Assembly: GCA_963719515.1 (NCBI GenBank)
Contig: CAVRCJ010000004.1
Location: 64,001 to 128,000, forward strand
DNA: 64,000 nt
Origin: an uncultured cyanobacterium
Lineage (GTDB): Bacteria > Cyanobacteriota > Cyanobacteriia > CAKZMO01
Direction: 5' to 3'
This document shows, piece by piece, positions 22,520 to 39,001 of the stretch (positions are counted from its first letter, which is position 1; the number at the start of each line of letters is the position of its first letter). The position numbers and the translations under genes were made by a program. The notes beneath the pieces are model-generated. The model was given only the letters and a program-made list of their open reading frames with translations, was not told the DNA's origin and ran no database searches.

Positions 22520-23308
22520 TTGGGGGCAGCGCAGTTTCAATTTCACCACCGTCAGCAGGGCCGCGGTCCCGCTATTCTGTTTCTGCATGGCTTTATGGGC
22601 GGCGGGCGCGATTTTGACGGGGTCTCGTCGCAGCTAAGCCAGCAGCAAACCTGTCTCACGCTAGACCTCCCCGACCACGGGCAGACCGTGACAGTTCGCG
22701 GAACGTCCTACTCTATGGCCGCAGTGGCGGACAGTATTCTGGACTGGCTGGCTGCGATCGCGCCGCGCCGCTGCATCTTGGCGGGCTACTCCATGGGCGG
22801 GCGGCTAGCGCTGTACCTAGCGCTGACGGCCCCCGAGCGCTTCTCTCACCTCTTGCTCGAGTCCGCCTCTCCCGGTCTAAAAACCCCCGCCGAGCGGCAG
22901 GCCCGCATCGCTCAAGATAAAGCGCGATCGCAGCAAATCCAGCAGGACTTCGAAGAGTTTCTGCAGCGCTGGTACCAAGCGCCCATGTTCCAAAATCTGG
23001 CCCAGCAGCCTAACTTTAACGCTGTGCTGCAGCGACGACGGCAGAATGCTCCCGAGGCATTGGGGCGATCGCTCCGCTGCCTCGGGACTGGACAACAGCC
23101 CTCCCTATGGCCGCAGCTGCACAAGCTTACTCTGCCGACGCTGCTGCTGACCGGCGAGCAGGACAAAAAATTCTGCACAATTAACGCTGAAATGGCGCAG
23201 CAAATTCCCAATGCGCAGTTGATAATGGTGGCGGGCTGCGGTCACACAATACATTTAGAGAAACCAGCTCGGTATGTGCAAGCGATCGCTGCTTTAGCTA
23301 GTTCGTGA
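22520..23308 (+). CDS. menH: 2-succinyl-6-hydroxy-2,4-cyclohexadiene-1-carboxylate synthase
   Basis: FLHGFMG, GYSMGGRLAL, LESASPGL, GTGQQPSLW, GEQDKKF, GHTIHLE. Confidence 0.9.
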   Translation: MGAAQFQFHHRQQGRGPAILFLHGFMGGGRDFDGVSSQLSQQQTCLTLDLPDHGQTVTVRGTSYSMAAVADSILDWLAAIAPRRCILAGYSMGGRLALYLALTAPERFSHLLLESASPGLKTPAERQARIAQDKARSQQIQQDFEEFLQRWYQAPMFQNLAQQPNFNAVLQRRRQNAPEALGRSLRCLGTGQQPSLWPQLHKLTLPTLLLTGEQDKKFCTINAEMAQQIPNAQLIMVAGCGHTIHLEKPARYVQAIAALASS

Positions 23309-23746
23309 AAGCCCCGCGCTGTATGCGCAGCATCAGCGTCGGGATGTGAGCGAGCGAGTCGAGGTGCGCCCTTAACTGGATGCCGAAGGCGGCAATTAAG
23401 GGCAGCGCCGAGGCGAGCAAAGGGTACAATTGAACCAAGCTCAAACTATTTCATGGCGGCGGCCTGCTATCCTGACACAAACGTACAGCCCTGGGCTGGT
23501 GAACAGTGCAGACGGTAGAAAACGTAGCTGGAAATTGAATACTCGTCACTGTCTGGGGTTGGTCATTGCCTGGACATTAAACAAATCGCCTGTCGATGGG
23601 ATCTAATCGGGGTTGCACGGCTTGCTGCGTAACTAGACAGGACCAGATGAAGCAGGATACCTTCTTGCGCGGCATCCATTAAATTGTGGTGCGTGAGCCA
23701 AGAAGCCCGCGCTCTATCTAAAAGATGAGCGTCGGGAGTATGTCAC
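23298..23746 (+). mobile_element. Non-autonomous IS200/IS605-derived element A (no ORF)
   Basis: Follows TTTAG. Left hairpin CCCGCGCTGTATGCGCAGCATCAGCGTCGGGA, right hairpin CCCGCGCTCTATCTAAAAGATGAGCGTCGGGA, ending GTCAC. Homologous over its length to 37934-38372. Confidence 0.8.
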
Positions 23747-23787
23747 TCGGGACAAAGTCTGATACTTGACCTATCTTCGTGGCTGCT

Positions 23788-23830
23788 GACGCTCAACCGC
23801 CGATAGAGTCTAGGGCTTCCCGTCTAGTCG
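23788..23830 (-). mobile_element. Isolated degenerate IS200/IS605 left end (element D)
   Basis: GGGCTTCCCGTCTAGTCGCTAAA is identical to the left end plus TTTAG of the element at 37075-37466. Confidence 0.65.
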
Positions 23831-23973
23831 CTAAATGCAACGGCATTGGTTACCTGCTGCTGCAATCAATGGCTTCTACCAGGTTACGCTGGCCCTCCAA
23901 TCCCCCCACGGCCACTTGACCCACTCGGAACTGATACACTCATAGTCGGCGTGAACCCTCAGGTTTAGGACCT

Positions 23974-24804
23974 ATGTACCCACCCGTTGACCCCATCATC
24001 TTTGAGTTTGGCCCCATTGCCCTGCGCTGGTACGGCCTCCTGATGATGCTCGCCATCTTGACAGGGGCAACCCTAGCGAGCCGCTACGTTGGCCGCCAGG
24101 GGCAAGACCCGGATGACTTCTGGGACATGCTGATTTGGGTGCTGATTCCTGCCTTCATTGGGGCCAGACTGTACTACGTGTTCATCCAGTCGCCGCGCGG
24201 TGAAGATGGCCTGCAGTATTACCTGTCGAATCCGGCGGAGATTTTTAAGATTTGGAGCGGCGGCATCCACATTTTTGGGGCGTTTATTGCGGGTACGCTG
24301 GCGCTGTGGCTCTATACGCGGCTGCGTAATTTACCCGCCTTGGTCTTTTTAGACGGCATTGCTTTAGGCTTGCCTTTGGCCCAGGCTATTGGCCGCTGGG
24401 GCAACTTCATCAACCAGGAGCTGTACGGCCCGCCGACTGACCTATCTTGGGGACTGCGCATCGACCCGCGCCACCGCATTGGGCCGTACCGCGACCTAGC
24501 TGAATATGACCAGAGCACCCGCTTTCATCCCCTATTTTTATATGAGTCGCTGTGGAATTTTGCGGGATTTGCGCTGATTTTCTGGATTTCCCGGCGCTTT
24601 AAGCTCAGAGATGGAGATTTGGCTCTGCTGTACCTAATTTGGTATCCCTTGGGTCGGTTTTTCATCGAGTTCCTGCGTACGGACTCCTGGTTTTTCCCAG
24701 GAACGCCGTTCAACGTGGTGCATATTTTGTGTGCGATCGCCGTCATTGCCGCAAGCGTTACCCTGTATTTACGGCGTCAGCGTCAGCAGTCAGCAGTTCA
24801 GTGA
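23974..24804 (+). CDS. lgt: Prolipoprotein diacylglyceryl transferase
   Basis: RWYG, GARLYYV, AQAIGRWGNFINQELYG, HPLFLYES, RFFIEFLR. Confidence 0.95.
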   Translation: MYPPVDPIIFEFGPIALRWYGLLMMLAILTGATLASRYVGRQGQDPDDFWDMLIWVLIPAFIGARLYYVFIQSPRGEDGLQYYLSNPAEIFKIWSGGIHIFGAFIAGTLALWLYTRLRNLPALVFLDGIALGLPLAQAIGRWGNFINQELYGPPTDLSWGLRIDPRHRIGPYRDLAEYDQSTRFHPLFLYESLWNFAGFALIFWISRRFKLRDGDLALLYLIWYPLGRFFIEFLRTDSWFFPGTPFNVVHILCAIAVIAASVTLYLRRQRQQSAVQ

Positions 24805-24823
24805 GCTACCGTAACGATTACCT

Positions 24824-26218
24824 ATGGCTCCCCCTTCCCCCCGTCTAATTATCATCGGTCTCGACTGCATGGAGCCCTCCCTGGTCTTCGAGCAGTGGCA
24901 GGGCGACCTGCCCAACCTATCGCGGCTGATGGCCCAAGGCAGCTATGGCCGCCTAGAGAGCAGCATTCCTGCCATCACCGTCCCGGCCTGGAGCTGCATG
25001 ACCAGCGGGCGCGACCCTGGCGAGCTGGGCATCTACGGCTTTCGCAACCGCCGCAGTCGCGACTATCACAGCATGGCCATCTCCGACGGGCGGGCGGTGA
25101 AGATGCCGCGCCTGTGGGACATCCTAGGGGATGCGGGCTGGCAGGTGGCGGTGCTCAGCGTACCGGGCACCTCGCCCCCCTACCCGGTGAACGGCTCGCT
25201 GGTGTCCTGCTTCCTCACCCCCAACACCGATGGCCCCTTCACCCATCCCCCCGAGCTGGCGGAGCAGATCCGCGACTGGATGCCCGACTTTATGCTGGAC
25301 GTGCCCCAGTTCCGCTCCAACGACAAAGCGCGGATTTTGGATAACCTCTACACCCTCTGCGACCAGCGCTTTACCCTAGCGGAAAAGCTAATCCACAGGG
25401 ACAGCCCCGACATGCTGATGCTGGTGGACATGGCCACCGATCGCATCCACCACTCGTTCTGGAAGCCCATGGACCCCCGCCATCCCCAGTACGAGCCGGA
25501 CTCGCCCTACAAAAGCGCCATTCACGACTACTACTGCCACGTGGACCAGCGCATTGGTGAGTTGCTGAACCACTGCAGCGATGAGACGGCGGTGCTAGTG
25601 GTGTCAGACCACGGCGCTCGCCCGCTGATGGGGGGCGTGTGCATTAACGAGTGGCTGATGGCCCAGGGCTACCTGACGCTCAAGGAGACGCCTAGCGAGG
25701 TTGTCTCTCTAGATCAAGCCGAAGTGGACTGGAGCAAAACTAAAGTCTGGGGCGCGGGAGGATACTACGCCCGCATCTTTATTAACGTGGAGGGCCGGGA
25801 GCCGGAGGGCGTGGTGCCCATGGCGGAATACGAGGGGCTGCGATCGCGCCTGGCCGACCAGCTCAAAACCCTCACTGACCCAGAGGGCAATCCCCTCGTC
25901 GTGAAGGTGTTCAGGCCCCAGGAGATTTACCGGCGGGTGCGGGGCATGGCCCCCGACCTAATCGTTTATTTTGACGACTTGGCCTGGCGCTCTATTGGTT
26001 CGGTGGGCATCGGGGCGCTGCACACCACCGACAACGACACCGGCCCCGACGACGCCAACCATGCCCCCTTCGGGATGATGATTTTCCACGACCCCAAAGA
26101 TCCAAAGGGAGGTCAAGTGCTGGAGGGGGCTCAGCTCTACGACATTTTGCCGACGCTGCTGTCGCGCTACGGGCTTCAAGCACCGTCTGGGCTGCGGGGC
26201 AGGGTGCTGCCGGTCTAG
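24824..26218 (+). CDS. Alkaline phosphatase superfamily / type I phosphodiesterase
   Basis: IIGLDC, PAITVPAW, DRIHHSFW, VSDHG, DDANH. Confidence 0.88.
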   Translation: MAPPSPRLIIIGLDCMEPSLVFEQWQGDLPNLSRLMAQGSYGRLESSIPAITVPAWSCMTSGRDPGELGIYGFRNRRSRDYHSMAISDGRAVKMPRLWDILGDAGWQVAVLSVPGTSPPYPVNGSLVSCFLTPNTDGPFTHPPELAEQIRDWMPDFMLDVPQFRSNDKARILDNLYTLCDQRFTLAEKLIHRDSPDMLMLVDMATDRIHHSFWKPMDPRHPQYEPDSPYKSAIHDYYCHVDQRIGELLNHCSDETAVLVVSDHGARPLMGGVCINEWLMAQGYLTLKETPSEVVSLDQAEVDWSKTKVWGAGGYYARIFINVEGREPEGVVPMAEYEGLRSRLADQLKTLTDPEGNPLVVKVFRPQEIYRRVRGMAPDLIVYFDDLAWRSIGSVGIGALHTTDNDTGPDDANHAPFGMMIFHDPKDPKGGQVLEGAQLYDILPTLLSRYGLQAPSGLRGRVLPV

Positions 26219-26320
26219 CCAACGCTATGACCGCTGCTTAGGTGCTGTATGGGTGGCCCTAAGCGGCGAGCAGGGCAATTGCTAGATAGGGTGCGGATTT
26301 TTTTGAGGCGATCGTGGTTA

Positions 26321-26444
26321 CAACACTCCGGACAGTTTTTGATGATCAACGAGAGAATGAGGGTTTTAGCCCTCTCTTACGATAGTTGAGCGAACGAGAA
26401 ATCAAGGGTTTCAGCGATCGCCTAGAAAATTGTCCGGACTATTG
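26321..26444. mobile_element. MITE with about 19 bp terminal inverted repeats
   Basis: CAACACTCCGGACAGTTTT ... AAAATTGTCCGGACTATTG (3 mismatches), with no ORF between. Confidence 0.6.
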
Positions 26445-26508
26445 AAGAGATAGACTCAAAACAAAATAAAATTAACCATTTAACCATTTCGATAGCTGTC
26501 ATCAGGTC

Positions 26509-27690
26509 ATGAATCAAGAGCATGTAAACAATTTGGATAAAGGTAAAAATTTTTGGAATGAATGGCGAAAACATAATGCAGACATAGAACCTGACTTTAA
26601 AGAAGCTCAGTTAACTGATATGGATTCGCATTTAATCGCTCCCTTGAAGCGGAGAGATTTAAGAGGCTATGATTTGAGCAGAGCTAATTTTTGGCGGGCA
26701 AACTTTAGAGCCGTAGATTTGACTGAGGCAAATTTATCTAGAGCACACCTTAATCAAGCAATTTTAGAAGAAGCTGATCTAACTAGAGCTAATTTGCAAA
26801 GTGCTTGGGTTGAAGGAGCAAATCTATGTAAAGCCTCATTGCAGGAAGCTAATTTATGTTCAGCTCAGCTATGGAGATCAGATTTATCTAGAGCAGATTG
26901 TAGTAGTGCCTTCTTTTGTCAAGCTAATTTAGGTGCTGCTGATTTATTCAAGGCAAATTTTAGCAATACTTGTTTGCGAAATTCTAACCTTATGGGTGCG
27001 CGGCTTGTAGAAACTAATTTTAGGAATGTAGATCTTACAGGTAGTTCAATCTGGGGAATATCTGCTTGGGATTTAAATTTAGAAGGCGCAAATCAAGACA
27101 ATTTAGTAATTACACCTAAAGGTTCTTCTACCATTACAGTGGATAATCTTGAAGTTGCTCAATTTACATATTTACTGCTCAACAATCAGAAGCTCCGTAA
27201 CATAATCGACACCATTACATCTAAAGCGGTGCTGATTTTAGGGCGATTTACTCAAGAACGTAAAATAGTGTTAGATGCGATAAGAGATGCACTAAGACAG
27301 CACAATTTTGTCCCGATGATATTTGATTTCGACCGCCCCAGTGATCGAGACTTTACCGAAACAATTGTGACCCTGACCGGGATGTGCCGATTTGTTATAG
27401 CAGATATTACAAACCCGAAATCAAGTCCTCTTGAGCTACAGGCAACAGTGCCAAACTATATGATTCCTTTCGTTCCTATTCTTCAGAAGGGAGAAAATCC
27501 CTTCTCAATGTTTCGAGATCTCCGAAATAAATATGATTGGGTATTAGATACTCTAGTTTATGACTCTACAGAGAATTTACTTAAAGGGTTGAACAAAGCT
27601 GTTATTTATCCTGCTTTGCAAAAGAGTGAAGAGCTTATGTTAAGGAAAGCCAGTGAGTTAAAGACTAGAGATATTCATGATTATTTATAG
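26509..27690 (+). CDS. Pentapeptide-repeat protein with C-terminal TIR/NDT-like alpha/beta domain
   Basis: A(N/D)Lxx repeats at about aa 50-195, then VLILGRF...RFVIADITNPKSSPLEL...PFVPIL. Markedly AT-rich, with no HIP1 site seen. Confidence 0.85.
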   Translation: MNQEHVNNLDKGKNFWNEWRKHNADIEPDFKEAQLTDMDSHLIAPLKRRDLRGYDLSRANFWRANFRAVDLTEANLSRAHLNQAILEEADLTRANLQSAWVEGANLCKASLQEANLCSAQLWRSDLSRADCSSAFFCQANLGAADLFKANFSNTCLRNSNLMGARLVETNFRNVDLTGSSIWGISAWDLNLEGANQDNLVITPKGSSTITVDNLEVAQFTYLLLNNQKLRNIIDTITSKAVLILGRFTQERKIVLDAIRDALRQHNFVPMIFDFDRPSDRDFTETIVTLTGMCRFVIADITNPKSSPLELQATVPNYMIPFVPILQKGENPFSMFRDLRNKYDWVLDTLVYDSTENLLKGLNKAVIYPALQKSEELMLRKASELKTRDIHDYL

Positions 27691-27760
27691 TAATGTTGAC
27701 CTGATTTTTTATACTTGTTTAACCCATAAATGTTTAAGTTATTTTAGTTAAGTAATAGAG

Positions 27761-27846
27761 GTCTAACACTTCACGGCAGCGGACGGACGGAAGCCGTTGG
27801 TGCTGAGTTCTGGGTTATCTGCCGCCGCTGCGTTTTGCCGTTAGAC
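27761..27846 (+). mobile_element. Integron attC-like recombination site
   Basis: R'' GTCTAAC and R' GTTAGAC are complementary. ACGGCAGCGGACGG pairs with CCGCCGCTGCGT leaving two extrahelical bases. It lies 70 bp after the stop of the AT-rich gene. Confidence 0.75.
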
Positions 27847-27909
27847 AAATGCTTCAACATGCCCCATCGGCTACGGGATAGAATGCTACCGGCGTGATTA
27901 ATGTAGCAA

Positions 27910-28887
27910 TTAGCCCGGGTAGTGACAGGCGACGTAATGATCATCGCCGCTAGGCTGGAGCATCGGCAGAACCTGTTGGCAGCGATCGCCTCCCTTGGGG
28001 CAGCGGCCATAGAGCCGGCAAACCTGAGGCGAGGGGTTGATGGGGCTGCGGGGTTCACCCGTCAGAGGAATACGAGGCGGACGGCCTTCAAAGCTAGGAA
28101 TAGCCGAGACTAGAGCCTGGGTGTAGGGGTGCTGGGGATGGTTGAAGATTTGGTCTGTGGGCCCCGTTTCCACCAGCTTGCCCAGGTACATCACCAAAAT
28201 GCGATCGCACAGCAGCCGCACCACGTTTAGGTCGTGGGAGACGAACAGGTAGCTCATGTTCAGCTGCGATCGCAGGTCGGCCAGCAAATGTAAAATCACC
28301 GCCTGCACCGACACGTCTAGCGCCGAGGTGGGCTCATCCAAAATCAGCAGCTTCGGGCTGAGGGCGATCGCCCGCGCAATTCCCACCCGCGCCTTTTGGC
28401 CCCCAGAAAGCTGATGGGGAAAGCGGCCTAGCAGTTCGGGCGGCAGGCCCACCTGCTGGGCTAGCGCCATGGTCCGCTGCTGCATTTGCTGGCGGCTGCG
28501 CTTGTCCCCAAGTCGCCGGATAGGCTCTGTGATCGTGTCAAAGGCCGTGAACCGGGGGTTGAGGCTGTCGCTGGGGTCTTGAAACACCATCTGCAGCTCG
28601 GGCCGATGGGCGCTGTGGGCAAAGGTGCCAACTGGGATGCGGCCAATATCGACGCCGTCAAACGCGATCGCCCCTGCGGTGGGTTCTAGCAGGCGGGCAA
28701 TGAGGCGAATTAGCGTCGACTTGCCGCAGCCCGACTCTCCCACAAGCCCGACGCTTTCCCCTGGCGCAATGGTGAGGTCGATGCCGTCCACGGCGTGGAG
28801 CGATCGCTTGGGGCTGGGCATCAGCGGCCAGGAGAACCCGGACGGCGCGACGGGGAAGTGTTTTTCGAGTCCGGTGACTTGGAGCAT
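27910..28887 (-). CDS. Dpp/Opp-family ABC transporter ATP-binding protein (F-type)
   Basis: [24 protein letters not shown] and a C-terminal oligopeptide-transport cysteine domain. Confidence 0.93.
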
Positions 28888-28937
28888 TTTGAGGCTGTGC
28901 TTACAGGTGTTTAACTAAGGCTGTCGGTTTACTCCCC

Positions 28938-29996
28938 TCAGTCCCCCCTTGCCAAGGGGGGAAGTTCGGTCTGCGGCGCTGGTGCGGCTGGCATAGGGAA
29001 GTCAAAGGGCGATAAAGGGTGCCAGCAGGCCACCGCGTGGTCGGCCCCTACGGTTTCGTAGGGCAGCGGATTTTGGTGGCAGGTGTCGGTAGCGCGATCG
29101 CAGCGGCTGATGAACCGGCAGGGGGGGAGGTCGGAGCGGCGTAGGTCCGGCAGGTTGCCCAAAATGGGAATCAGGTCGTTAAAGCCTTTGTGGGGTTCTG
29201 GGGTGGCGGCGATTAGCTTAGCGGTGTAGGGGTGGCGCGGCTGGCGAAATAGGGTGTGGGTAGGGGCGCTCTCGACGACGTGGCCCGCATGCATGACTAA
29301 GATGCGATCGCAATATTCTGAGGCCATGGCCAGGTCGTGGGTAATGACGATGGTGGCCATCTGCTGCCCTGTGGCCAGCTGCTTAAGCAAGGTCATCACC
29401 GTAGCCTGGGTGGTGACGTCCAGACCTGTGGTGGGCTCATCTGCGATCAGAAGGTCGGGGGAGCAGGCCAGGGCTAGGGCAATCATCACCCGCTGGCAGA
29501 GCCCGCCTGAAAGCTCGTAGGGGTAGGCCTTATAGCGCTGCTGAGGGTCGGGGATGTTGACGCTGGCCAAGAGTTCCACGGCGCGGGATTTGAGCTGTGG
29601 TCGAGGCAGCTCGGTGTGGCAGCGCAGTACGTCGGTGAGCTGCTTGCCCACCTGACGGATGGGGTTGAGGGCGACCCGAGGATTTTGGAAGATCATCGAC
29701 AGCTCTTTGCCCCGCAGCGATCGCAGCCGCCTTTCTGGGAATTTGAGTAAGTTACAGAGTCCTTCGGGCTGCTGCCAGAGAATTTCTCCGGCGGTTACTT
29801 CCCCGGCGCGGTCTAGAATTCCAAGGATGGTCAGCGCCAGCACCGATTTCCCGGAGCCGCTCTCGCCCACGATGCCGAGGGTTTCGCCTCGGTTGATCTG
29901 GAAGCTAACGTTTTCTAGGGCGTTGACGGTGCCGCTGCGGGTGCGGAATTCGACGGACAGTCCCCGAACGGTGAGGAGGCTTTCGTTGTCGCTCAT
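28938..29996 (-). CDS. Dpp/Opp-family ABC transporter ATP-binding protein (D-type)
   Basis: [26 protein letters not shown]. Confidence 0.93.
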
Positions 29997-30166
29997 TTTG
30001 TCCTCCCATTCCTCATCACAACTTGACAGCGCAGCGTTTTTGGACCAGGGCTAAATGCGCCTCCATTAACGCTTTACTTCCCCTAGATACCGCCGTTTGC
30101 AGGGGGTTTGGGGGAGTCAACTCGTCCCCCAGATGGGGGTTTGGGGGCCTGCCCCCAAGCAGCCGG

Positions 30167-31054
30167 TTACGTTCGCATCCTCGGGTCAATCAAATCCCGC
30201 AGCCCATCCCCCAGCAAATTAAAACAAAACACCGCCAGCATCAGCACCATCCCCGGAAATATCGCCAGCCACCACTCCCCCGAAATAATATACGTCGCTC
30301 CCTCGGCGACCATAATCCCCCACTCCGGCGTCGGCGGACGCACCCCCAGACCAATAAACGACAGCCCCGCCGCATTCAGCATCGCCCAGCCCATATTCAG
30401 CGAAATATGCACCATCATCACCGGCAGCACGTTGGGAAACAGGTGCGCCGCCATAATCCGCAGGTGGCTATTGCCCGCGAGCCGCGCCGCCTCCACGTAG
30501 CCCGCCTCCCGCCGCACCAAAATCTCAGAGCGCACCACCCGCGTATAGAGCGGCAAATTGATCACCGCAGTGGCGTAGATGATGTTCTCCACGGTGTTGC
30601 CCAGGGCGGCCACTAGGCCCATGGCCAAAATAAACAGCGGAAACGCCATCAGCGTGTCGATGACGCGGCTGATAAGGCGATCGCACCAGCCGCCGAAGTA
30701 GCCGGCGCAGGTGCCCAAGATGCTGCCCAGGACAAAGGACAAGGCCACGGCCACTACCGCAATCCCCAGGTCCAGCCGCGTCGCTACCATCACCCGGCTG
30801 AGCACGTCTCTCCCCAGGGCATCGGTGCCAAACCAGTGAGCCATAGAGGGGGGCGATAGGGCCATGGCTGCGTTGCTGGCCAGCGGGTCGTAGGGGGCGA
30901 TCGCGTTCCCCAGCAGCGCCAGCAGCACCAGGCCAGAGAACATCAGGAAGGCCCCAAAGGTGACCGGGTTTTCGCTGATGACGTAGCGGGCCTGGTCTAG
31001 GGTCGCTTTGAAGGGCGAGGCGCTGGGGGGTTTGCTATGCGAGGGCGCTGTCAT
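30167..31054 (-). CDS. Dpp/Opp-family ABC permease (C-type)
   Basis: HWFGTDALGRDVLSR, EAA loop, LSFIGLG...PEWG. Confidence 0.93.
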   Translation of the reverse strand: MTAPSHSKPPSASPFKATLDQARYVISENPVTFGAFLMFSGLVLLALLGNAIAPYDPLASNAAMALSPPSMAHWFGTDALGRDVLSRVMVATRLDLGIAVVAVALSFVLGSILGTCAGYFGGWCDRLISRVIDTLMAFPLFILAMGLVAALGNTVENIIYATAVINLPLYTRVVRSEILVRREAGYVEAARLAGNSHLRIMAAHLFPNVLPVMMVHISLNMGWAMLNAAGLSFIGLGVRPPTPEWGIMVAEGATYIISGEWWLAIFPGMVLMLAVFCFNLLGDGLRDLIDPRMRT

Positions 31055-32076
31055 TCCACACCTGCCCGAGGGTCAATTACGGTGTACAGCAAGTCGATTA
31101 GCAGGTTTAGCACCACGTAGAGCAGCGCCATGGTGAGCACAAATCCCTGCACCGCCGCGTAGTCGGAGGCAATTAGGGCCGACACCGCGTAGGAGCCAAT
31201 CCCCGGCCAGGCGAACACCTTCTCCACCAGCACGTTCGCCCCCAGCAAAAAGGAAAATACTACCCCCAGCGTGGTGACCACCGGCAGCATGGCGTTGCGA
31301 AAAGCATAGGCAAACAGCACCGTGTGGGCGGCCAGTCCGCTAGCGCGGGCGGTGCGGATGAAGTCGCTGGAGAGCACCCCCAGCATGGCGGCGCGGGTGA
31401 CGCGGGCTAACGGCGCGAGGGCAAACAGCCCTAGGGTAATGGCGGGCAGAATCAGCTGGCCTAGGGCAGCGCCGAAGGTATCCAAGTCTCCGGCCAGCAG
31501 GCTATCTACTAGGAACAGCCCCGTCACGGGGTTTGGAGCCGAGTAGAGCAGGGCCAGTCGACCCAGGGGGGCAGGGGCGATGCCGAGGCGAAAGTAGAAG
31601 ACGTAGATCAGCAGCAGCCCCGTGAAGAAGGTGGGCAGGGACACCCCCGCCGTGGCCAATACCCGCACCCCATGGTCAATCCAAGAGCCCGGACGGGTGG
31701 CCGCTAGAATGCCCAGCGGCAGGGCTAAGCTGAGAGAAAACAGCAGCCCCGCTAGGGTTAGCTCCAGGGAGGCGGGCAGTCGCGTCAGCAGGTCTGACAT
31801 CACCGTTTGCCCCGTGGTCAGGGAGTTGCCCAAATCCCCCCGCAGCAGTTCCCCCACGTAGATCAAGAACTGCTCGGGCAGGCTGCGGTCCAGCCCTAGG
31901 GTGACGCGAATTTGGTCGATGGCCTCCTGGCTGGCCGCTGGCCCGGCAAAGTAGGCCGCTGGGTCCCCCGGTAGCGATCGCGTCAGCACGAAGGTGACCA
32001 CAATCACGCCAATGACGCTGGGAACGGCGGCGAGGATGCGGCGAAGGATAATCGTGATTGTGGAGGGCCGGGCCAT
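31051..32076 (-). CDS. Dpp/Opp-family ABC permease (B-type)
   Basis: LPGDPA, GDLGNS, DFIRTARASG, VEKVFAWPGIG. Confidence 0.93.
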   Translation of the reverse strand: MARPSTITIILRRILAAVPSVIGVIVVTFVLTRSLPGDPAAYFAGPAASQEAIDQIRVTLGLDRSLPEQFLIYVGELLRGDLGNSLTTGQTVMSDLLTRLPASLELTLAGLLFSLSLALPLGILAATRPGSWIDHGVRVLATAGVSLPTFFTGLLLIYVFYFRLGIAPAPLGRLALLYSAPNPVTGLFLVDSLLAGDLDTFGAALGQLILPAITLGLFALAPLARVTRAAMLGVLSSDFIRTARASGLAAHTVLFAYAFRNAMLPVVTTLGVVFSFLLGANVLVEKVFAWPGIGSYAVSALIASDYAAVQGFVLTMALLYVVLNLLIDLLYTVIDPRAGVE

Positions 32077-32079
32077 GAG

Positions 32080-33771
32080 TTACGCCTTCTGCAGCTGCCG
32101 GTAGTCCAGCTGCCGGTGGAACCAATATTGATAGCCCTCCACACCGGGCTGCATGGCCACCGAGAGGTAGGGCTGGGCAATCACGATGCGGGGCATCTCT
32201 TCAAAGGCGATCTTGAGGAACGCCTTGACGTTCTCTTCGTAGGCAGGCTCGTCCGGCGCTAAGGCCAGGGCTGCGTCCACATGCTTGTCTAGCTCAGGGT
32301 TTTGGTAGGCGCTGCCGTTAAAGGTGGCGTTCTGCCCGTGGTAGGAGTAGAAGAAGAAATAGTCGGGGTAGTTGAGCCAGCCGCCGAAGTTGTTGACAAT
32401 CATGGGCCGGTTCTTTTCCACCAGCACCGCCCGGAAGTTGGAGCCTGGCACCTTCTCCAGGGTGACGTCGATGCCAATTTGGGCCAGGGATTCCTGCACT
32501 AGCACGCTCAGGGGTTCGGCCCACTCCTGGGTGCCCAGGTTGAAGGCCAGGGTGGTCTCAAAGCCTTCGGGGTAGCCCGATTCTGCCATCAAGGCTTTGG
32601 CCTGCTCCAGGTCGGTGCTGTAGGGGTAGGGCTGGGGCCAGTCGATGGTTTTCGGCTCGGCGCTGTCCGCCCCGTACATGGGAACACATTCCCCGTAGAG
32701 CGCGGTGTTCACAATGTCGTCGTAGGGCATGGCGTAGGCCACCGCCTGCCGCACTTTCACATCGCTAAAGGGGTTGGGGGCACCCTCCAGCTCGGGCTGA
32801 GAGTTGAGGTCGATGGTGTAAAGGCAGTTTTCAATGGGCGTAGAGACGATGGTGTAGTCTCCGGTGGTGCGCAGCTCGCTGACGTCTTTCTCAGACATGT
32901 CGAAGTTGACGTCCACATCCCCCTTCTCCAACAGGGCGCGGCGGTTTCCAGCCTCGGGCACGTTTAGCTCAATGATCTTAGCAACGGCGGGCAGCGGCCC
33001 CGATTTCCACTCCTCAAACCGCACCAGCTCCACCCGCTCTTCGGGCTGGAACGACTCTAGCTTATAGGCTCCGCCTCCCGCCGGGTTGGCGTTGACCCAC
33101 TCCAGCCCCCAGGGGTCAGCCTCGGTGACGTTGGGCTCAATCAGCGCTGAGTTCATGATGGCTGGAATGGGCACCGCCATATCCATCAGGGTCAGCTTAT
33201 CTTGGCGCAGGAAGTTGACCCGAAACGTATAGTCATCTTCTACAACGAACTGCTCAGGGTTCTCTAGCGCCCCGGCCTTCATCTGAAACGAGGGGAAGCC
33301 GCCCACGGAAACAGCGCGATCGTAAGACCACTTCACGTCTTTGGCGGTGACGGGGGTGCCGTCGTGGAAGGTGGCGTCTTCCCGCAGCTTGAAGGTCACC
33401 GAAAGTCCGTCGTCGGCCACGGTCCAGGATTCGGCCAGCTCGGGTTCAACTGTGGTGTAGTCGTAGGATAAGGAGCCGTCCTCTAGGGTTTTGGTGCCGA
33501 AGGTGACGAGGCGATCGTACAGGCACCAGGAGGTGCCGTAGGCGGGGCGGTTGGTGCCCACCTGGTGCAGGTCCAAGCCGTTGGGGAAGCCGCCGCCTCG
33601 GACGACGGTGAGGATAGCGGGTTCGCTGCTGCCCGAGGCGTCTGCCTCTGCGTCGGTTGAGGGGGCGTCTGAGGTGGTGTCACTGCTAGGTCCGCAGGCT
33701 TTGAGCAGCATAGCTAGGGAGATGCCTGTAGTGAAGGCGGTGCCCCGCTGTAGTAAGTCTCGTCTTCGCAT
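32080..33771 (-). CDS. ABC transporter substrate-binding lipoprotein, family 5 (Tat signal)
   Basis: MRRRDLL twin-arginine motif, LKAC lipobox, LAESW, FHDGTPVTAKDV. Confidence 0.92.
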   Translation of the reverse strand: MRRRDLLQRGTAFTTGISLAMLLKACGPSSDTTSDAPSTDAEADASGSSEPAILTVVRGGGFPNGLDLHQVGTNRPAYGTSWCLYDRLVTFGTKTLEDGSLSYDYTTVEPELAESWTVADDGLSVTFKLREDATFHDGTPVTAKDVKWSYDRAVSVGGFPSFQMKAGALENPEQFVVEDDYTFRVNFLRQDKLTLMDMAVPIPAIMNSALIEPNVTEADPWGLEWVNANPAGGGAYKLESFQPEERVELVRFEEWKSGPLPAVAKIIELNVPEAGNRRALLEKGDVDVNFDMSEKDVSELRTTGDYTIVSTPIENCLYTIDLNSQPELEGAPNPFSDVKVRQAVAYAMPYDDIVNTALYGECVPMYGADSAEPKTIDWPQPYPYSTDLEQAKALMAESGYPEGFETTLAFNLGTQEWAEPLSVLVQESLAQIGIDVTLEKVPGSNFRAVLVEKNRPMIVNNFGGWLNYPDYFFFYSYHGQNATFNGSAYQNPELDKHVDAALALAPDEPAYEENVKAFLKIAFEEMPRIVIAQPYLSVAMQPGVEGYQYWFHRQLDYRQLQKA

Positions 33772-33984
33772 GGTGTTGCTCCTTTGGCCCGGCCTGACAC
33801 GTTAAAGATAATAGTAGGGCAAGGGCGCGGAGCTTTTGGGGAAGAAATCGGGAAGATTGAGCTAGTTGGACTGGATCTTGAGAGGAATTATGAATGGTCG
33901 AGGAAACTATCGTCTTTCTGGAAGCCTTTAAGATGTGGCCAGTGCTCGCGTGGCGGTTAGGAAATGGTGTAGGACATGGGAGAG

Positions 33985-34355
33985 CGGTGCGCCTTTACTT
34001 TGATGCCGAAGGCGAGAATTGAGGGCAGCGCTGAGGTGAGCAATAGGTGTACTTGTGGATGTACTTAAGTATAGATGTACTTAAGAGATAGCGGTAATGC
34101 GCACTAATATATCCTATGGGTATGGTCCGGAGCACCTGAAAAACCTGTAGTGGCGGTCAACCACAAGCCAGAGCCAGCTGGTGCTGAGAAGAGGATTTCC
34201 TCAAATTGTCTGCGGTGGGACGCACCGTCGACGTAAAACAAACAGCCTGTGAAGGCGTTCTGACCGGGGATGTCTGGGCTTGCTTGGATATCTAGGCATG
34301 AGCCAGTGAAACAGGACTTTCTGACTGTACCCGTAGGGTCAGGGGGAGAGCGTTA
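33985..34355 (+). mobile_element. Decayed IS200/IS605-derived element E
   Basis: Shares the GGTGCGCC...GATGCCGAAGGC...GAGGGCAGCGC..GAGG.GAGCAA block with elements A and B. Has a tnpB-tail-like segment (AVGRTVDVKQTACEG; GCCAGTGAAACAGGA) and a degenerate end hairpin CTGTACCCGTAGGGTCAG. Confidence 0.6.
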
Positions 34356-34376
34356 GGGCGGCCTCCTGCTCAAAAC

Positions 34377-35219
34377 CTAGTCCGCAGCGTTAGGGCGGAG
34401 ATAGCTGCTCAGACTATCGACAAGGGTGACCAACACCAACACCAAAATCAATAGGGCCGAAACCTCGTTGTATTTCAACACCCGCAGAGCGCTAATAATC
34501 TCCAGCCCTAAGCCCCCAGCCCCCACAGCCCCCAGCACTAGAGATGCCCGCAGGTTGTATTCCCAGCGGTAAAGGGTTACATCCGCTATCTGGGGAAAGA
34601 TCTGGGGAAAGATGCTGTGGACAATCACCTGTGGCTGCGTTGCGCCAGTGGCGCGGGCCGCTTCTACGGGAGCCTGGTCACTCAGCTCAATCGACTCGGC
34701 AAAAAACTTACCGACCATACCGATAGAATGCAGACCTAAAGCCAGGGTGCCAGGCAATGTGCCAAAGCCCACCGCTGCCACCAAAATCATCCCTAAAATT
34801 AGCTCGGGAATGGCCCGGGCCACGTTGAGCGCCAGGCGAGCGAGATGGAAGACGCCGGGATGAGGAGACGTGTTTCTCGCGGCCAGTAGGGATAGGGGAA
34901 GGCACAACCCAACCGCGATCGCCGTCCCGGCCACGCTCATGGCTAGGGTGTCAACAATTGGGGAAATCCACTGGGGAAAGCGGCTAAAGTCTGGCGGAAA
35001 TGAGGCCTGGGCGAGGCGGGCGATCGCGGGGAGACCTGCTGCCATGCGCCTGACATCCAGCAGCCCGACGGCAGCAAAGCTCACCGAAATAAGCCCCAAC
35101 AGTAGGGCGAGCCGTATCGCCTGCCTATACCACCGCCGCTGATGCTGGCGGAGAATACCGCTGAACGGATCTTTGGGAAAGGGCTCTTGGCCCGGTGCGC
35201 TATCGGTCGGTGAACGCAT
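34377..35219 (-). CDS. ptxC: Phosphite/phosphonate ABC permease (PtxC/PhnE)
   Basis: PPDFS, LAARNTSPH, RAIPE, GKFFAESIE, YRWEYNLR. Start placed at MRSP; the alternative start is 35234. Confidence 0.85.
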   Translation of the reverse strand: MRSPTDSAPGQEPFPKDPFSGILRQHQRRWYRQAIRLALLLGLISVSFAAVGLLDVRRMAAGLPAIARLAQASFPPDFSRFPQWISPIVDTLAMSVAGTAIAVGLCLPLSLLAARNTSPHPGVFHLARLALNVARAIPELILGMILVAAVGFGTLPGTLALGLHSIGMVGKFFAESIELSDQAPVEAARATGATQPQVIVHSIFPQIFPQIADVTLYRWEYNLRASLVLGAVGAGGLGLEIISALRVLKYNEVSALLILVLVLVTLVDSLSSYLRPNAAD

Positions 35220-35223
35220 ACCG

Positions 35224-36171
<948 letters not shown>

Positions 36172-36233
36172 CTATAGCAAATGTCCTGATGCATTAGGAC
36201 ATTTGCGCGTTCAGCTGCCTACACAACGCCGGA

Positions 36234-37034
36234 TTAGTTTCTTGCTTCGCTGATGTCATAACGCTCTACATCGGTTGGCGAACCGGCAGGCTGCCCTGCG
36301 TAAATTTCACTCAACACTTGAGGTCCTAATGCGGTAGGAGGGCCATCAAAAATAATCCGCCCGTGGGCCAGGCCAATAATGCGATCGCTGTAGGCTTGAG
36401 CAAAATCGACCTGGTGCAGGCTCAGCAGCGCCGCAATGCCGTCGGTCTTACAAATAGAGCGCAGTAGCGCCAGTATTGTGTGGGCGCTTTCTGGGTCTAA
36501 GCTAGCGATGGGCTCATCTGCCAGCATCAGCTGCGGATGCTGAGCCAAGGCGCGGGCAATGCCAACCCGCTGCTGCTGTCCGCCGCTTAGGGTGCTTACG
36601 GGCGTCAACGCCTTATCAATTAAGCCCACCCGCGCCAAGCAGTCTAAGGCGATCTTTTGGTCTCGCTGGGGCAGGGGCAGCAGACTCCGCCAGAACGAGT
36701 GGTAGGCCAGTCGACCTGTGAGTACATTTTGCAGCGCTGAGTATCGCTCAATCAGCTGGTGCTGCTGAAAAATCATTCCGGTTTGTTTGCGATGGAGCCG
36801 TAGCGCAGCGGATTGGGAAAGCGCGCCCAAGCCGTTAATGCTGACCCTGCCGCGAGTGGGAGGGTGCAGATAATTAATCGCGCGCAGCAGCGTCGATTTT
36901 CCTGCGCCAGAAGAGCCCAAGAGCACAACAAATTCGCCCCGGTTCAACCGTAGCGACACCGACTCTAGAGCAACTGTGCCGTTGGGGTAGGTGACGCCAA
37001 TGCGCTCTAAGCGGAGCAGCTGATCGCCTTTCAT
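36234..37034 (-). CDS. ptxA: Phosphite/phosphonate ABC ATP-binding protein (PtxA/PhnC)
   Basis: GSSGAGKST, FQQHQLI, LSGGQQQRVGIARA, ADEPIASLDP. Confidence 0.85.
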   Translation of the reverse strand: MKGDQLLRLERIGVTYPNGTVALESVSLRLNRGEFVVLLGSSGAGKSTLLRAINYLHPPTRGRVSINGLGALSQSAALRLHRKQTGMIFQQHQLIERYSALQNVLTGRLAYHSFWRSLLPLPQRDQKIALDCLARVGLIDKALTPVSTLSGGQQQRVGIARALAQHPQLMLADEPIASLDPESAHTILALLRSICKTDGIAALLSLHQVDFAQAYSDRIIGLAHGRIIFDGPPTALGPQVLSEIYAGQPAGSPTDVERYDISEARN

Positions 37035-37074
37035 CGCGTATCGTTCAACCGCACCTGGTCTTGAGAGACGCTCA

Positions 37075-37466
37075 GTGACATCCTCCCGACGCTGACAGCA
37101 AGCTGTACAGCGCGGGCTTCCTCAGTGACTCCCAGCTATTGCCGGGACATATCCTGAGATAGGTTTATACTCCGCCTGATGCCCCACGGCAGAGTTTTGA
37201 ATTTTCATCTCCGCGAGGGAGGATACGCACTATGTGTCGCAGATACATTTGCAAACTGAGGAACGGGTGACTTGCAGCTTTCGCCTACGGGCCCGTCACA
37301 CTCTTTGCGGGGTGTATCACCTTGCTATCTCTATCATACCAACTGCTAGCCTCAGCGCTGAGCGCACTATCCGCTGTGCATCATTTTGCGGGCGCACTTC
37401 GGCTAGCGCGACTCTCATCCCGACGCTCACCCTGACGGGTAGAGCGCGGGGCTTCCCGTCTAGTCG
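37075..37466 (-). mobile_element. Non-autonomous IS200/IS605-derived element C (no ORF)
   Basis: Minus strand reads TTTAG|CGACTAGACGGGAAGCCCCGCGCTCTACCCGTCAGGGTGAGCGTCGGGA ... GAAGCCCGCGCTGTACAGCTTGCTGTCAGCGTCGGGAGGATGTCAC. Confidence 0.8.
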
Positions 37467-37472
37467 CTAAAC

Positions 37473-37871
37473 CTACTGAGGTTGCCCCTCTTGATAGGCC
37501 CGCCAGCCGCCCCACGCGGTAATCTCCCGCTGTCCCTCACAGGCGATCGCCTCCCCTAGCACCCCTAGCACTTCTTCCCCGTCAGCAAGCTTCACCTTGC
37601 CAATCGCTAGCCCCGAGGGCTCCTGCTGCAAAATCTGCAATAGACCTGCAGACGGTACAGCCCATACCTCTAGGGCGATCGCGGCGCCACCCTCCTTCAC
37701 GCGCTGCATAGCCGGGTGGCGATCGCTGATGGACCATAGGCGGTAGGTCGGCTCCGTCTGGGCATCGTAGAGAAATTCTGCTCCCGCTGCTTGCATGTTG
37801 CCGTTGAGTTCTAATCCCCGCATCAGGGTTCCGTTGACGGCAAGCTTGAGAGTGAAAGAAGGATCTGACAT
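37473..37871 (-). CDS. Allophanate hydrolase C-terminal-domain-like protein (GGCT-like fold), standalone
   Basis: LAVNGTLMRGLELN, YRLWSI, LEVWAVP, GLAIGKVKLADG, EITAWGGWRAY. Confidence 0.8.
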   Translation of the reverse strand: MSDPSFTLKLAVNGTLMRGLELNGNMQAAGAEFLYDAQTEPTYRLWSISDRHPAMQRVKEGGAAIALEVWAVPSAGLLQILQQEPSGLAIGKVKLADGEEVLGVLGEAIACEGQREITAWGGWRAYQEGQPQ

Positions 37872-37933
37872 AGAAAGTTTGCTCGCTTGACGTCGATTCT
37901 AGGCCTAGGGGGCTGTGAGTCTGTAAGTCTCAA

Positions 37934-38372
37934 GTGACATTCTCCCGGCGCTTATCTTACAGATAAATCGCCGGCTTCAGAGAGCGCTCCCCTGCGATTT
38001 CCTGCTTATTTTGGCTCTGTCTAGTCACGCAGCACGCTATGCGACCCCGATTAGCTCCCATCCACAGGCCATTCTTACGTCCAGGTGATGACCCACCCCA
38101 GACACCAAGTATTTACTCCTTCACCTCACGTATCCTAATTTGCCGCACTGTTCACCAGCCATAGCTGCAGTTTGTGTCAGAACAGAAGGCCGCCACCCGT
38201 GTCGTCCCTCTGGGCGGTTTGTCCGCGTTGGCGATGTAATTCTACCATTTGTTCATCTCGCCACTGCCCTCAATTTCTGCCCTCGGCATCAGACTAGGGG
38301 CGCACCTCGACTCACACGATTTTCACCCCGACGCTGATGCTTTGCTTACAGCGCGGGGCTTCCATCTAAAAG
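37934..38372 (-). mobile_element. Non-autonomous IS200/IS605-derived element B (no ORF)
   Basis: Minus strand reads TTTAG|CTTTTAGATGGAAGCCCCGCGCTGTAAGCAAAGCATCAGCGTCGGG ... CCGGCGATTTATCTGTAAGATAAGCGCCGGGAGAATGTCAC. Collinear with element A. Confidence 0.8.
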
Positions 38373-39001
38373 CTAAAGATCGCCTCATCACATCTAAGCT
38401 GCCGCGCCCTGATCTTGCCAACGGCGATCGCCGTGAGAATCGTCGTGCGCGAGAGCGCAAAGAGTGCGGTGCGGCTAGAGTTGGCGAAAAGCAGATGACC
38501 GCATAACCCCAGGAACAGGAGGCCGAACTGGAGGGAGCTGTGGTTTTGTCCTAGCCAGGAGTAGCCCGAGATAGTGACCCCCTCACGATAAATTTTTCCC
38601 GTCCCCGTATGGACCCGTCTGCGCTGACGCTGAAGCTTGAGAGCCCCAGGCAGCTGGGAGACAAACGACAGGGGGCAGCTGCGCCGCCAGAAATCGTGGC
38701 CAAATACCAGCAAAACGAAGATACAGGCTGGAACGACAACCATCCAAAAGACAAAATTGCCCAGGCTGTAGGGGGCGGCCTCAAAGCACCGTCCCTGAAA
38801 TTCAACACAGCGGCTGGGGCCTAAACGAAACGGGCTGACAAGGCTCGACCCAGCGGTCAGCTGGCTCGAAAGGGGGTCGTACAGCAAAGAGCAAAGCAAG
38901 ATGCCCCATCCGGCTGTGAGTATCCACCTGACGCGGCGCATACTTTTTTCAGGCAAATCAGCAATCATGACGGGTGTGGCAATAGAGACGGGCCGGTCCA
39001 C
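38366..39001 (-). pseudogene. Truncated N-terminal fragment of a membrane 4Fe-4S-binding (NosR/NapH-like) protein
   Basis: GHDFWRRSCPLSFVSQL motif and transmembrane helices. The sequence departs from the expected pattern after AIAVG, where a second CP motif would be expected, and stops inside element B. Confidence 0.55.

Follow-up and report, generated by a model that had tools for sequence, protein, structure and literature searches.

TnpB normally takes its guide from its own mRNA, and an RNA-only element must win TnpB in trans. Protein-free IS605-family elements (PATEs) have been described in Haloquadratum walsbyi as lacking terminal inverted repeats and target duplication and carrying near-terminal palindromes that resemble each other at the two ends; they are too short to code, form homogeneous families and also occur in terminal-only forms (Dyall-Smith et al. 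2011, PMC3119063). The sections of that paper drawn on here present them as degenerate transposons and do not consider an RNA function. According to the portion of Meers et al. (10.1101/2023.03.14.532601) cited here, PATEs frequently carry omegaRNAs that depend on TnpB supplied in trans, their retention by cutting of the empty donor site has been proposed, and PATE-like elements of Geobacillus stearothermophilus have no protein gene and share the ends of tnpA/tnpB elements of the same genome. Standalone omegaRNAs that are mobilised without an effector or a transposase, and that act in trans with an effector of the same genome, have likewise been reported (Altae-Tran et al. 2023, PMC10691335). 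TnpB itself has been described to trim the 5' end of its own RNA (PMC10278001).

Three PATEs, elements A, B and C, were identified in the window (the whole 64,000-nucleotide stretch of an uncultured cyanobacterium analysed here, from contig CAVRCJ010000004.1). Element A (449 bp; 23298-23746, plus strand) is one of 18 copies recovered by a genome copy search and element C (392 bp; 37075-37466, minus strand) is one of 53, while element B (439 bp; 37934-38372, minus strand) is a single copy with relatives elsewhere in the genome (one at 86% and one half copy). An earlier note on this sequence had placed three complete elements at these coordinates, with the same imperfect hairpin at either end and a GTCAC terminus, and the sequence bears this out. 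The left-end hairpin is located at 23308-23343 (plus strand) in A, where it is subterminal and a predicted TnpA site; in B (38327-38362) and C (37419-37455) it forms, together with an upstream hairpin module (37347-37408 in C), the regions 38253-38362 and 37347-37455, both on the minus strand. When the near-terminal hairpins of the three elements are aligned with their counterparts in tnpA+tnpB and tnpB-only elements from this genome, they match at 78-97%. The terminal inverted repeats and target duplication expected of a MITE were not seen in the ends and flanks of A, B and C; like the H. walsbyi elements they combine IS605-type palindromes with small size (392-449 bp), and their target is a fixed 4-5 bases. 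Their longest ORFs are of 65, 55 and 46 codons, none of TnpA or TnpB length, in agreement with the earlier observation that no tnpA or tnpB ORF is left. As this type of element is already known, the core idea of the earlier note, that such ORF-less elements are stand-alone omegaRNA cassettes, is not new. The new part of the finding is that the elements carry two different structured 5' leaders, one of A/B type and one of C type.

Each element is preceded by TTTAG, which lies outside the element (23293-23297, plus strand, for A; 38373-38377 for B; 37467-37471 for C). This pentamer holds for A, B and C as had been claimed, but the target conserved across copies is TTAG (53/53 C copies and 15/15 A copies scored), the full TTTAG preceding 47 and ten of these, respectively. 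D elements insert after TTAA, and the left-end guide tracks the target, being GAAGC with TTAG and GAAGT with TTAA. The genome contains 79 complete ORF-less copies (53 C, 18 A, six D and two B-like) at 79 different flanks, numbers far beyond chance; together they occupy approximately 32 kb. The C copies are 97-99% alike, and the C site is empty in the relative G004, where 93 bp separate the flanking genes versus 480 bp here. In the two regions tested, comparison with four congeners revealed no copy fixed at a shared site. The menH gene upstream of element A terminates at a stop codon contributed by the element's left end; ORF-less elements also remodel gene ends in this genome.

Two decayed copies had also been reported, without coordinates. 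The best candidates are element E and a terminal-only remnant of a related element (23766-23830, minus strand; nhmmer E 0.014), in which TTTAG is followed by the start of a left end and a single hairpin. Element E (about 33930-34356, plus strand, left boundary approximate) is, however, not a decayed form of A, B or C but a separate two-copy ORF-less family with different ends. It possesses an upstream hairpin as in A, B and C, a leader of its own and a scaffold of its own, and the -10 region of the copy in the window is broken by a short tandem duplication. A 128-bp repeat at 26319-26446 is unrelated.

The ends of C are common to three 1.8-kb tnpA+tnpB elements and 15 tnpB-only elements of 1483 bp. 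The genome has three TnpA genes whose ends match, and A, B and C have likely been moved by TnpA made elsewhere. Fifty-eight full-length TnpB ORFs were identified, with D/E/D kept in 56 (48 scored by pattern and eight by eye); the two deviating ORFs are single copies. No multi-copy nuclease-dead TnpB family was found among the 58, which speaks against the earlier suggestion that the RNAs could load a TldR. A/D-type left ends accompany 13 TnpB starts; five of these are full length with D/E/D, and TTAG precedes only one of the five. The scaffold of C is related to that of the 1483-bp and 1.8-kb elements (78% over 116 nt). For the scaffold of A, the genome offers no closely related coding element, alignment being limited to the final 57 nt (82%), and B' aligns at 66% over 144 nt. 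Judged by shared ends and scaffold likeness, a catalytically intact and compatible TnpB appears to be encoded in the genome, less firmly so for A and B. The searches proposed earlier for further copies, for intact tnpA and tnpB genes bounded by matching ends and for empty sites in relatives (the last for C) gave positive results, and the cognate TnpB on which the earlier proposal had been made to depend was among the genes found.

Predicted -10 boxes are located at equivalent positions, as previously noted: TACAAT in A (23425-23430, plus strand; no TG extension and no -35), and the extended boxes TGGTAGAAT in B (38239-38247, minus strand; -10 at 38244-38239) and TGGTATGAT in C (37333-37341, minus strand; -10 at 37338-37333). 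No -35 box is present at these sites, and a sigma-70 scan gives no full promoter. The extended -10 pattern, which was composed after the sequences had been viewed, occurs in 13 of 16 elements examined, with varying middles, and in 7/7 distant C-type loci. Between the left end and the -10 box lies a 60-nt covarying hairpin (23356-23418, plus strand, in A) common to A, B, C and E, nine of its 22 pairs having changed on both sides among ten sequences.

A putative omegaRNA scaffold with a TCAC end occupies 23551-23746 (plus strand) in A, consisting of stem 1 with a pseudoknot loop, stems 2-3 and the right-end hairpin (23702-23736). Those of B (37934-38103, minus strand) and C (37075-37194, minus strand) are, respectively, of A/D type and one in which stem 1 is compensated and the pseudoknot is 6 bp long. 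The resemblance to the tnpB 3' end that had been noted for A and B is present there, stems 2-3 aligning with coding-element scaffolds, but is not confined to them, as C has such a block derived from another TnpB family. As in the part of the ISDra2 omegaRNA description used here (Nakagawa et al. 2023, PMC10097598), the scaffold ends at the right end and, in C, the stem-1 loop is predicted to pair with positions -3 to -5. However, the ISDra2 omegaRNA and the RAGATH-18 reRNA (RF03064) are described as lying within or beside tnpB (PMC10097598, PMC11061315), whereas the RNAs of A, B and C are on ORF-less elements, and RAGATH-18 goes with IS607 TnpB in the account of Ren et al. (2024, PMC11061315), whereas these elements are of the IS605 family. 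The scaffold core of a relative scored 25.7 bits against RAGATH-18, below the gathering cut-off of 44.9 bits, and no Rfam match was obtained anywhere in the window at cut-off.

Across 16 scaffold sequences (12 ORF-less), nine of the 16 base pairs show changes in both partners, and stems 2 and 3 are paired in 100% and 98%. The pseudoknot is located 100-190 nt inside the element end, beyond the TnpA-bound part. With registers anchored on the loop and picked by eye instead of automatically, its pairs at -3 and -5 are kept in 17/17 and 16/17 ORF-less elements. In C it consists of six pairs, one of them G-U, with compensatory changes in relatives, position -6 alternating between A-U and G-C among C-type elements. 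In A and B, Watson-Crick pairs at -3, -5, -6 and -7 flank a U-U at -4; this U-U is fixed in nine of 17 ORF-less scaffolds (A, B, D and relatives) versus none of seven coding ones. The tnpB reading frame within the scaffold is shifted in G374. The interior of the elements is not neutral: the -10 box persists, and covariation is seen in the stems of the omegaRNA and in its pseudoknot, which answers the earlier concern about neutral decay, with the U-U of A and B as a weak point. The view of a -10 box and scaffold as parts retained after ORF loss is upheld as to their structural conservation, but not as to the RNA being a mere leftover, since it begins with a distinct conserved domain that comes in two unrelated types. 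The predicted RNAs measure 268-330 nt, close to the roughly 300 nt previously estimated.

Leaders of both types directly follow the -10 box. The A/B type, a long hairpin whose internal loop is conserved, is located at 23459-23527 (plus strand) in A and 38126-38193 (minus strand) in B, and the C type, unrelated to it by either covariance model, at 37200-37330 (minus strand). The A/B leader covaries strongly and is 90% paired, with double changes in nine of 15 pairs; covariation in the C leader is thin (two of 18 pairs, which comes down to two clades). The invariant bases lie in internal loops, not in stems, and leaders alone fold no better than shuffles (z -1.96 to +1.69). The A/B leader is present in 11 of 310 other cyanobacterial genomes, a count that includes a match in G018 (E 0.0015) lacking element ends and possibly due to chance (the R2 search of G151-G230 gave 0/80; G231-G320 lay outside the search). 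For the C leader, a covariance model gave matches in eight of 150 genomes, more than BLAST, which recovered only two congeners among 400. In the leader-bearing genome G397 (700 contigs), no TnpB match was obtained with the query used. Scaffold, or part of it, is downstream of at least one A/B-leader copy in nine of the 11 genomes and in all eight C-type loci fetched; it is deleted in the second copy of G356, and none is visible in G112. Neither leader type was seen on a tnpB-coding element, neither matches Rfam, ribozyme families included, and the A-leader and upstream-module patterns have no match in viral contigs.

Several alternative views of the leaders were discarded. The first A-leader structure, in which an inner CAC pairs with the nearer GTG, gave a covariation of 0.069 versus 0.222 for the other register. 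The resemblance, seen by eye, between a C-leader hairpin and the A-leader stem was set aside, as the hairpin is missing from distant C-type leaders and neither model matches the other leader. A short peptide encoded in the A leader was rejected on the basis of stop codons in G374 and G111. The longest helices between leaders and tnpA/tnpB mRNA are of 10-15 bp versus 9-17 bp for shuffles (12 each); values slightly above shuffles for D (14-15) and for the A leader against a 1398-bp element (14 versus a maximum of 13) were not taken as a signal.

The predicted guides are the flanking DNA at 23747-23766 (plus strand) for A, 37914-37933 (minus strand) for B and 37055-37074 (minus strand) for C. All 79 guides differ. 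When they were compared with all genomic TTAG and TTAA sites, the best matches equalled those of 298 random controls, none reaching 14/16, and no match to a host promoter beside the target motif, of the TldR type, rose above the random control. The genomic targets that the earlier note had proposed to search for thus did not emerge, and its dispersed guide repertoire is not borne out; the guides are chance flanks of recent insertions. For one of the three guides in the window, viral contigs contain TTAG followed by 14 identical bases, the match ending there; we estimate this to be about chance level. Element A has no match in the plasmid collection, nor element C in the phage collection.

The observed ends, target motif, copy number, partner genes, -10 box, covarying scaffold and leaders and guides without other targets are best explained, with moderate confidence, by ORF-less elements, probably mobilised by TnpA, that likely transcribe a trans-acting omegaRNA, with which TnpB would cut the element's own empty site and repair would restore the element. 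Transcription from the -10 box would yield an RNA of 270-330 bases comprising structured leader, omegaRNA scaffold and a guide from the flank. This RNA would load TnpB encoded elsewhere in the genome, the loaded TnpB would cut the empty site, and repair would copy the element back. In the most speculative step, the leader may take the place that tnpB mRNA otherwise holds at the front of the precursor, protect the untranslated RNA and aid TnpB capture in trans before being trimmed off. Points that count against this explanation are the missing -35 box and the lack of a TG extension in A, a -10 pattern composed after viewing the sequences, the U-U at -4, the A scaffold without a closely related coding element, TTAG before only one of the five intact TnpBs of A/D type, the negative TnpB query in G397, leaders that alone fold no better than shuffles and the thin covariation of the C leader. 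Selfish retention of this kind is likelier than steering of TnpB or TldR to host genes or phages by dispersed guides. For the latter speak the 79 different guides and the abundance of TnpB, but with matches at control level, no multi-copy nuclease-dead TnpB, no copy fixed in four congeners across the two regions tested and a sole viral match near chance, a host-used repertoire is highly improbable. Plain non-autonomous elements, in which only the end hairpins have a role and everything between them is passenger DNA unused as RNA, also appear very unlikely. Conservation within the genome could be explained by recent spread alone, since copies within a family are 97-99% alike, and horizontal transfer could account for likeness between genomes; yet across families the spacer and upstream sequences diverge, whereas compensatory changes preserve the -10 box, the core of the leader, the scaffold stems and the pseudoknot, and full 390-450-bp forms have been amplified although a 65-bp terminal-only form exists.

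It is unlikely, too, that the RNAs act as decoys or antagonists, binding TnpB while guiding little cutting (above all those of A, B and D) and damping the nuclease of coding elements. The U-U at -4, a stem 1 longer than in the four coding elements aligned, the excess of 79 ORF-less copies over 58 full-length tnpB ORFs and a TnpB mRNA segment reported to inhibit cutting (in the part of PMC10278001 cited here) would fit such a role, but A and B keep the four flanking pseudoknot pairs, the pseudoknot is complete in C, E and most distant elements, and the element would have no clear gain in spread. A leader that is cargo RNA (self-cleaving, protein-binding or an sRNA), independent of TnpB loading, seems quite unlikely. 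Its invariant internal-loop bases, the occurrence of two unrelated leaders on different scaffolds and the scaffold-free cases in G356 and G112 are consistent with cargo; against it stand the scaffold downstream of most leaders, the lack of an Rfam match and mRNA pairing no better than shuffles.

The cyanobacterial elements differ from the G. stearothermophilus PATEs, as far as the cited part of that study (10.1101/2023.03.14.532601) describes them, in that most copies (79) lack an ORF and that conserved structured 5' leaders, together with a hairpin upstream, are found on them. No leader domain is described in the part of the standalone omegaRNA report considered here (PMC10691335), and the activity of the present elements is predicted from sequence. 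Two unrelated covarying leaders, seen only on ORF-less elements, are candidates for the means of winning TnpB in trans. They would be new RNA families and would make it possible to test directly what keeps standalone omegaRNAs in existence; they might also make guides more stable, or easier to load, in TnpB-based editing, for which the guide and the protein are delivered separately. More tentatively, it is possible, if doubtful, that cyanobacteria harbour long-lived RNA-only IS605 satellites, modular (ends, upstream hairpin, promoter, interchangeable structured leader and omegaRNA scaffold) rather than deletion remnants, whose leaders boost the loading of guides in trans. In that case, the leaders would let an untranslated RNA divert TnpB from its own mRNA by binding, stabilising or self-processing.

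The three ORF-less IS200/IS605-type elements A (23298-23746, + strand), B (37934-38372, - strand) and C (37075-37466, - strand) are placed as the earlier note had stated, each with TTTAG ahead, related end hairpins and a GTCAC terminus. The likely counterparts of its two "decayed" copies are a terminal-only remnant (23766-23830) and element E (~33930-34356, + strand), although E, one of a two-copy ORF-less family (second copy at G000:C7:179659-180063 of the same genome, 80% alike), has other IS605 ends. A scan of the genome containing the window (G000; 5.28 Mb, 21 contigs) gave 222 matches to the end hairpin, and 101 elements emerged when left ends were paired with right ends; three A copies overlooked by this pattern were recovered by BLAST. 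Family C has 53 copies (391-393 bp, mean 98% alike), family A eighteen (449 bp), family D six (422-424 bp) and B a single copy with one relative at 86%, making 79 complete ORF-less copies, the genome-wide count for which the earlier note had called. The four bases ahead of the element are TTAG in 53/53 C and 15/15 scored A copies, and TTAA in 6/6 D copies.

ORF-less homologues are also present in other cyanobacterial families. In congener G004 the C site carries no element, and the B flank has the same initial bases in congener G002, where the upstream side of B is unaligned. C copies in G002 (L052:1490-1891) and G004 (L053) are 94% and 87% alike, while neighbouring host genes are at 70-83%; this excess points to selection or transfer. 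Within the window, menH (22520-23308) takes its stop codon from the left end of A, and an unannotated 211-aa ORF (38366-39001) terminates within that of B. Between B and C, and upstream of an ABC transporter of the phosphonate type, lies a stand-alone 132-aa ORF (37473-37871, - strand) whose sole match is to the C-terminal portion of allophanate hydrolase. A repeat of 128 bp at 26319-26446, whose ends are inverted, is unrelated to the omegaRNA elements and has 12 genome copies, one of them inserted in a tnpB element (G000:C13:118817-120428).

Partners for these elements are encoded in the same genome, where the TnpB zinc-finger family was matched 81 times and the Y1 transposase family 14 times. 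C has the same ends as fifteen 1483-bp elements with tnpB only and three 1.8-kb elements carrying both tnpA and tnpB (one of their TnpBs scores 274 bits to NF040570), and a second TnpB family shares its left ends with A and D (13 starts, 5 full length with the three RuvC residues, of which one follows TTAG and four TTAA). Intact coding relatives with shared ends, which had been proposed as a check, thus exist; no close coding parent of A was found in this genome. One C copy lies directly upstream of a 228-codon remainder of a tnpB of another family (G000:C6:428069-429155), into which it was apparently inserted. The left-end sequence switches with the target, GAAGC with TTAG and GAAGT with TTAA, a co-change expected of TnpA substrates from work on IS608. 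Among the 58 full-length TnpB ORFs, 48 fit all three catalytic patterns, a further eight show the glutamate by eye and two, each a single copy, deviate. As 56/58 retain the catalytic residues and the deviants are single copies, this set contains no family of TldR (nuclease-dead TnpB), and the suggested loading of a TldR was not borne out.

An extended -10 pattern, drawn up from sequences already inspected, occurs in 13/16 elements examined and in 7/7 distant C-type loci; the three exceptions are E, a copy truncated by a contig end, and a copy that reads CGGTAAAAT when inspected by eye. No -35 box was found at these elements. In the omegaRNA scaffold of A, B, D and E, 9/16 named pairs show two-sided changes in a set of 16 sequences (12 of them ORF-less and 4 coding), which 0/500 shuffles equalled, although kinship inflates such counts. 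The E scaffold is 72% like the tail of the tnpB at G000:C6:428397; over its last 116 nt, C matches the tail of the 1483-bp element at 78%, and relative to that tail stem 1 is rebuilt through compensatory changes. In the ISDra2 omegaRNA, the stem-1 loop is described as pairing with bases -3 to -5 (PMC10097598). With registers picked by eye, pair -3 is present in 24/24 elements and pair -5 in 16/17 ORF-less ones, and pair -6 alternates between A-U and G-C in C-type elements. Position -4 is U-U in 9/17 ORF-less elements, including A and B, and in 0/7 coding ones, which counts against the omegaRNA reading.

The -10 box is separated from the scaffold by 110-140 nt for which no search made gave a tnpB origin. 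The leaders of A and B have a common 70-nt core, predicted to fold into a long hairpin containing a bulged A, a nearly invariant internal loop and a variable capping hairpin. Its covariance model matches 21/21 A/B-type copies in this genome and 11/310 other genomes of the class (7/150, 0/80 and 4/80), in eight other families. When 16 copies are aligned by sequence alone, pairing holds in 90% of cells and 9/15 pairs change on both sides (covariation score 0.499 vs <=0.138 for slid controls). A scaffold or part of one follows in 9/11 genomes, and tnpB stands between leader and right end in none of the loci viewed; TnpB homologues occur in 9/10 of the genomes tested, at 56-77% identity in six. 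One match, in G018, has no element around it and may be due to chance. Another (L175, G112:C67:4900-6100) carries the leader together with a left end and a small divergent ORF, which by eye resembles a ribbon-helix-helix protein, with no tnpB or visible scaffold.

The C leader is different, neither covariance model hitting the other type. It was detected in 2/400 genomes by BLAST and in 8/150, from four other families, by covariance model. In 8/8 inspected loci (of 14 matches outside the genus) it runs straight into scaffold and right end, with a left end within 300 nt in five. Pairing reaches 95.5% with two-sided changes in only 2/18 pairs, and what supports the model is chiefly invariant sequence in the loops. 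The leaders of D and E differ again: that of D (L108:335-446), also found in another family (G185, L088), opens like the C leader, with a weak score against the C model (8.4 bits, E 1). By eye, all four types share CGUA or a near variant immediately ahead of the capping helix, which an A-rich strand follows; one common core is possible, although neither model supports it. Rfam gave no match at cut-off in the window, nor for the leaders at relaxed thresholds. No description of such leaders was found in the literature searched; subscription journals, bioRxiv supplements and a 2021 Science paper may hold one.

A 60-nt hairpin between left end and -10 box, upstream of the predicted transcript start, is present in A, B, C and E (E joining it to its own leader) and missing from D and this genome's coding elements. 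Nine of its 22 pairs change on both sides, and wobble pairs assign it to the top strand. Pattern scans found one C-type record and one chance match in genome contigs, and four A-type loci and two chance matches in metagenome contigs. As guesses, it might act as a fold of the single-stranded intermediate during transposition or insulate against read-through; 50/79 ORF-less copies are oriented like the upstream gene.

All 79 guides differ. Their best genome matches beside TTAG/TTAA reach 5-10 contiguous bases and <=13 of 16, similar to 298 random controls (5-11 and <=14 of 16), and searches of viral contigs for exact target plus 14 bases gave 0, 1 and 0 hits for the three window guides, the single hit ending at base 14. 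Because matches stay at this level, each guide has just one perfect target, the empty site of its own element, in line with the retention model put forward by Meers et al. (10.1101/2023.03.14.532601), where PATEs are described as often encoding omegaRNAs that need TnpB in trans; standalone omegaRNAs are elsewhere stated to act in trans (PMC10691335). The dispersed guide repertoire of the earlier note loses ground here, and its use by the host is highly improbable. That the interior is inert passenger DNA is quite improbable: scaffold pairs covary, against neutral decay. It is improbable that the leader is a separate cargo RNA, given a scaffold or part of one in most A/B-leader genomes and in every C-type locus inspected. 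Decoys, whose RNAs bind TnpB yet guide little cutting, are unlikely.

We consider it probable that these are TnpA-moved elements whose omegaRNA loads TnpB in trans for cutting of the empty site. TnpA would move them, and the -10 box would drive an RNA of 268-330 nt. TnpB made by coding elements would bind this RNA and trim its 5' end, by analogy with the trimming reported on its own mRNA (PMC10278001). The complex would cut the empty site, and repair would refill that site. Several chromosome copies are common in cyanobacteria and would favour such homing. The putative job of the leader would be to stabilise an untranslated RNA and aid its capture by TnpB in trans; elements of this kind are already known, and the leaders make these a novel variant.
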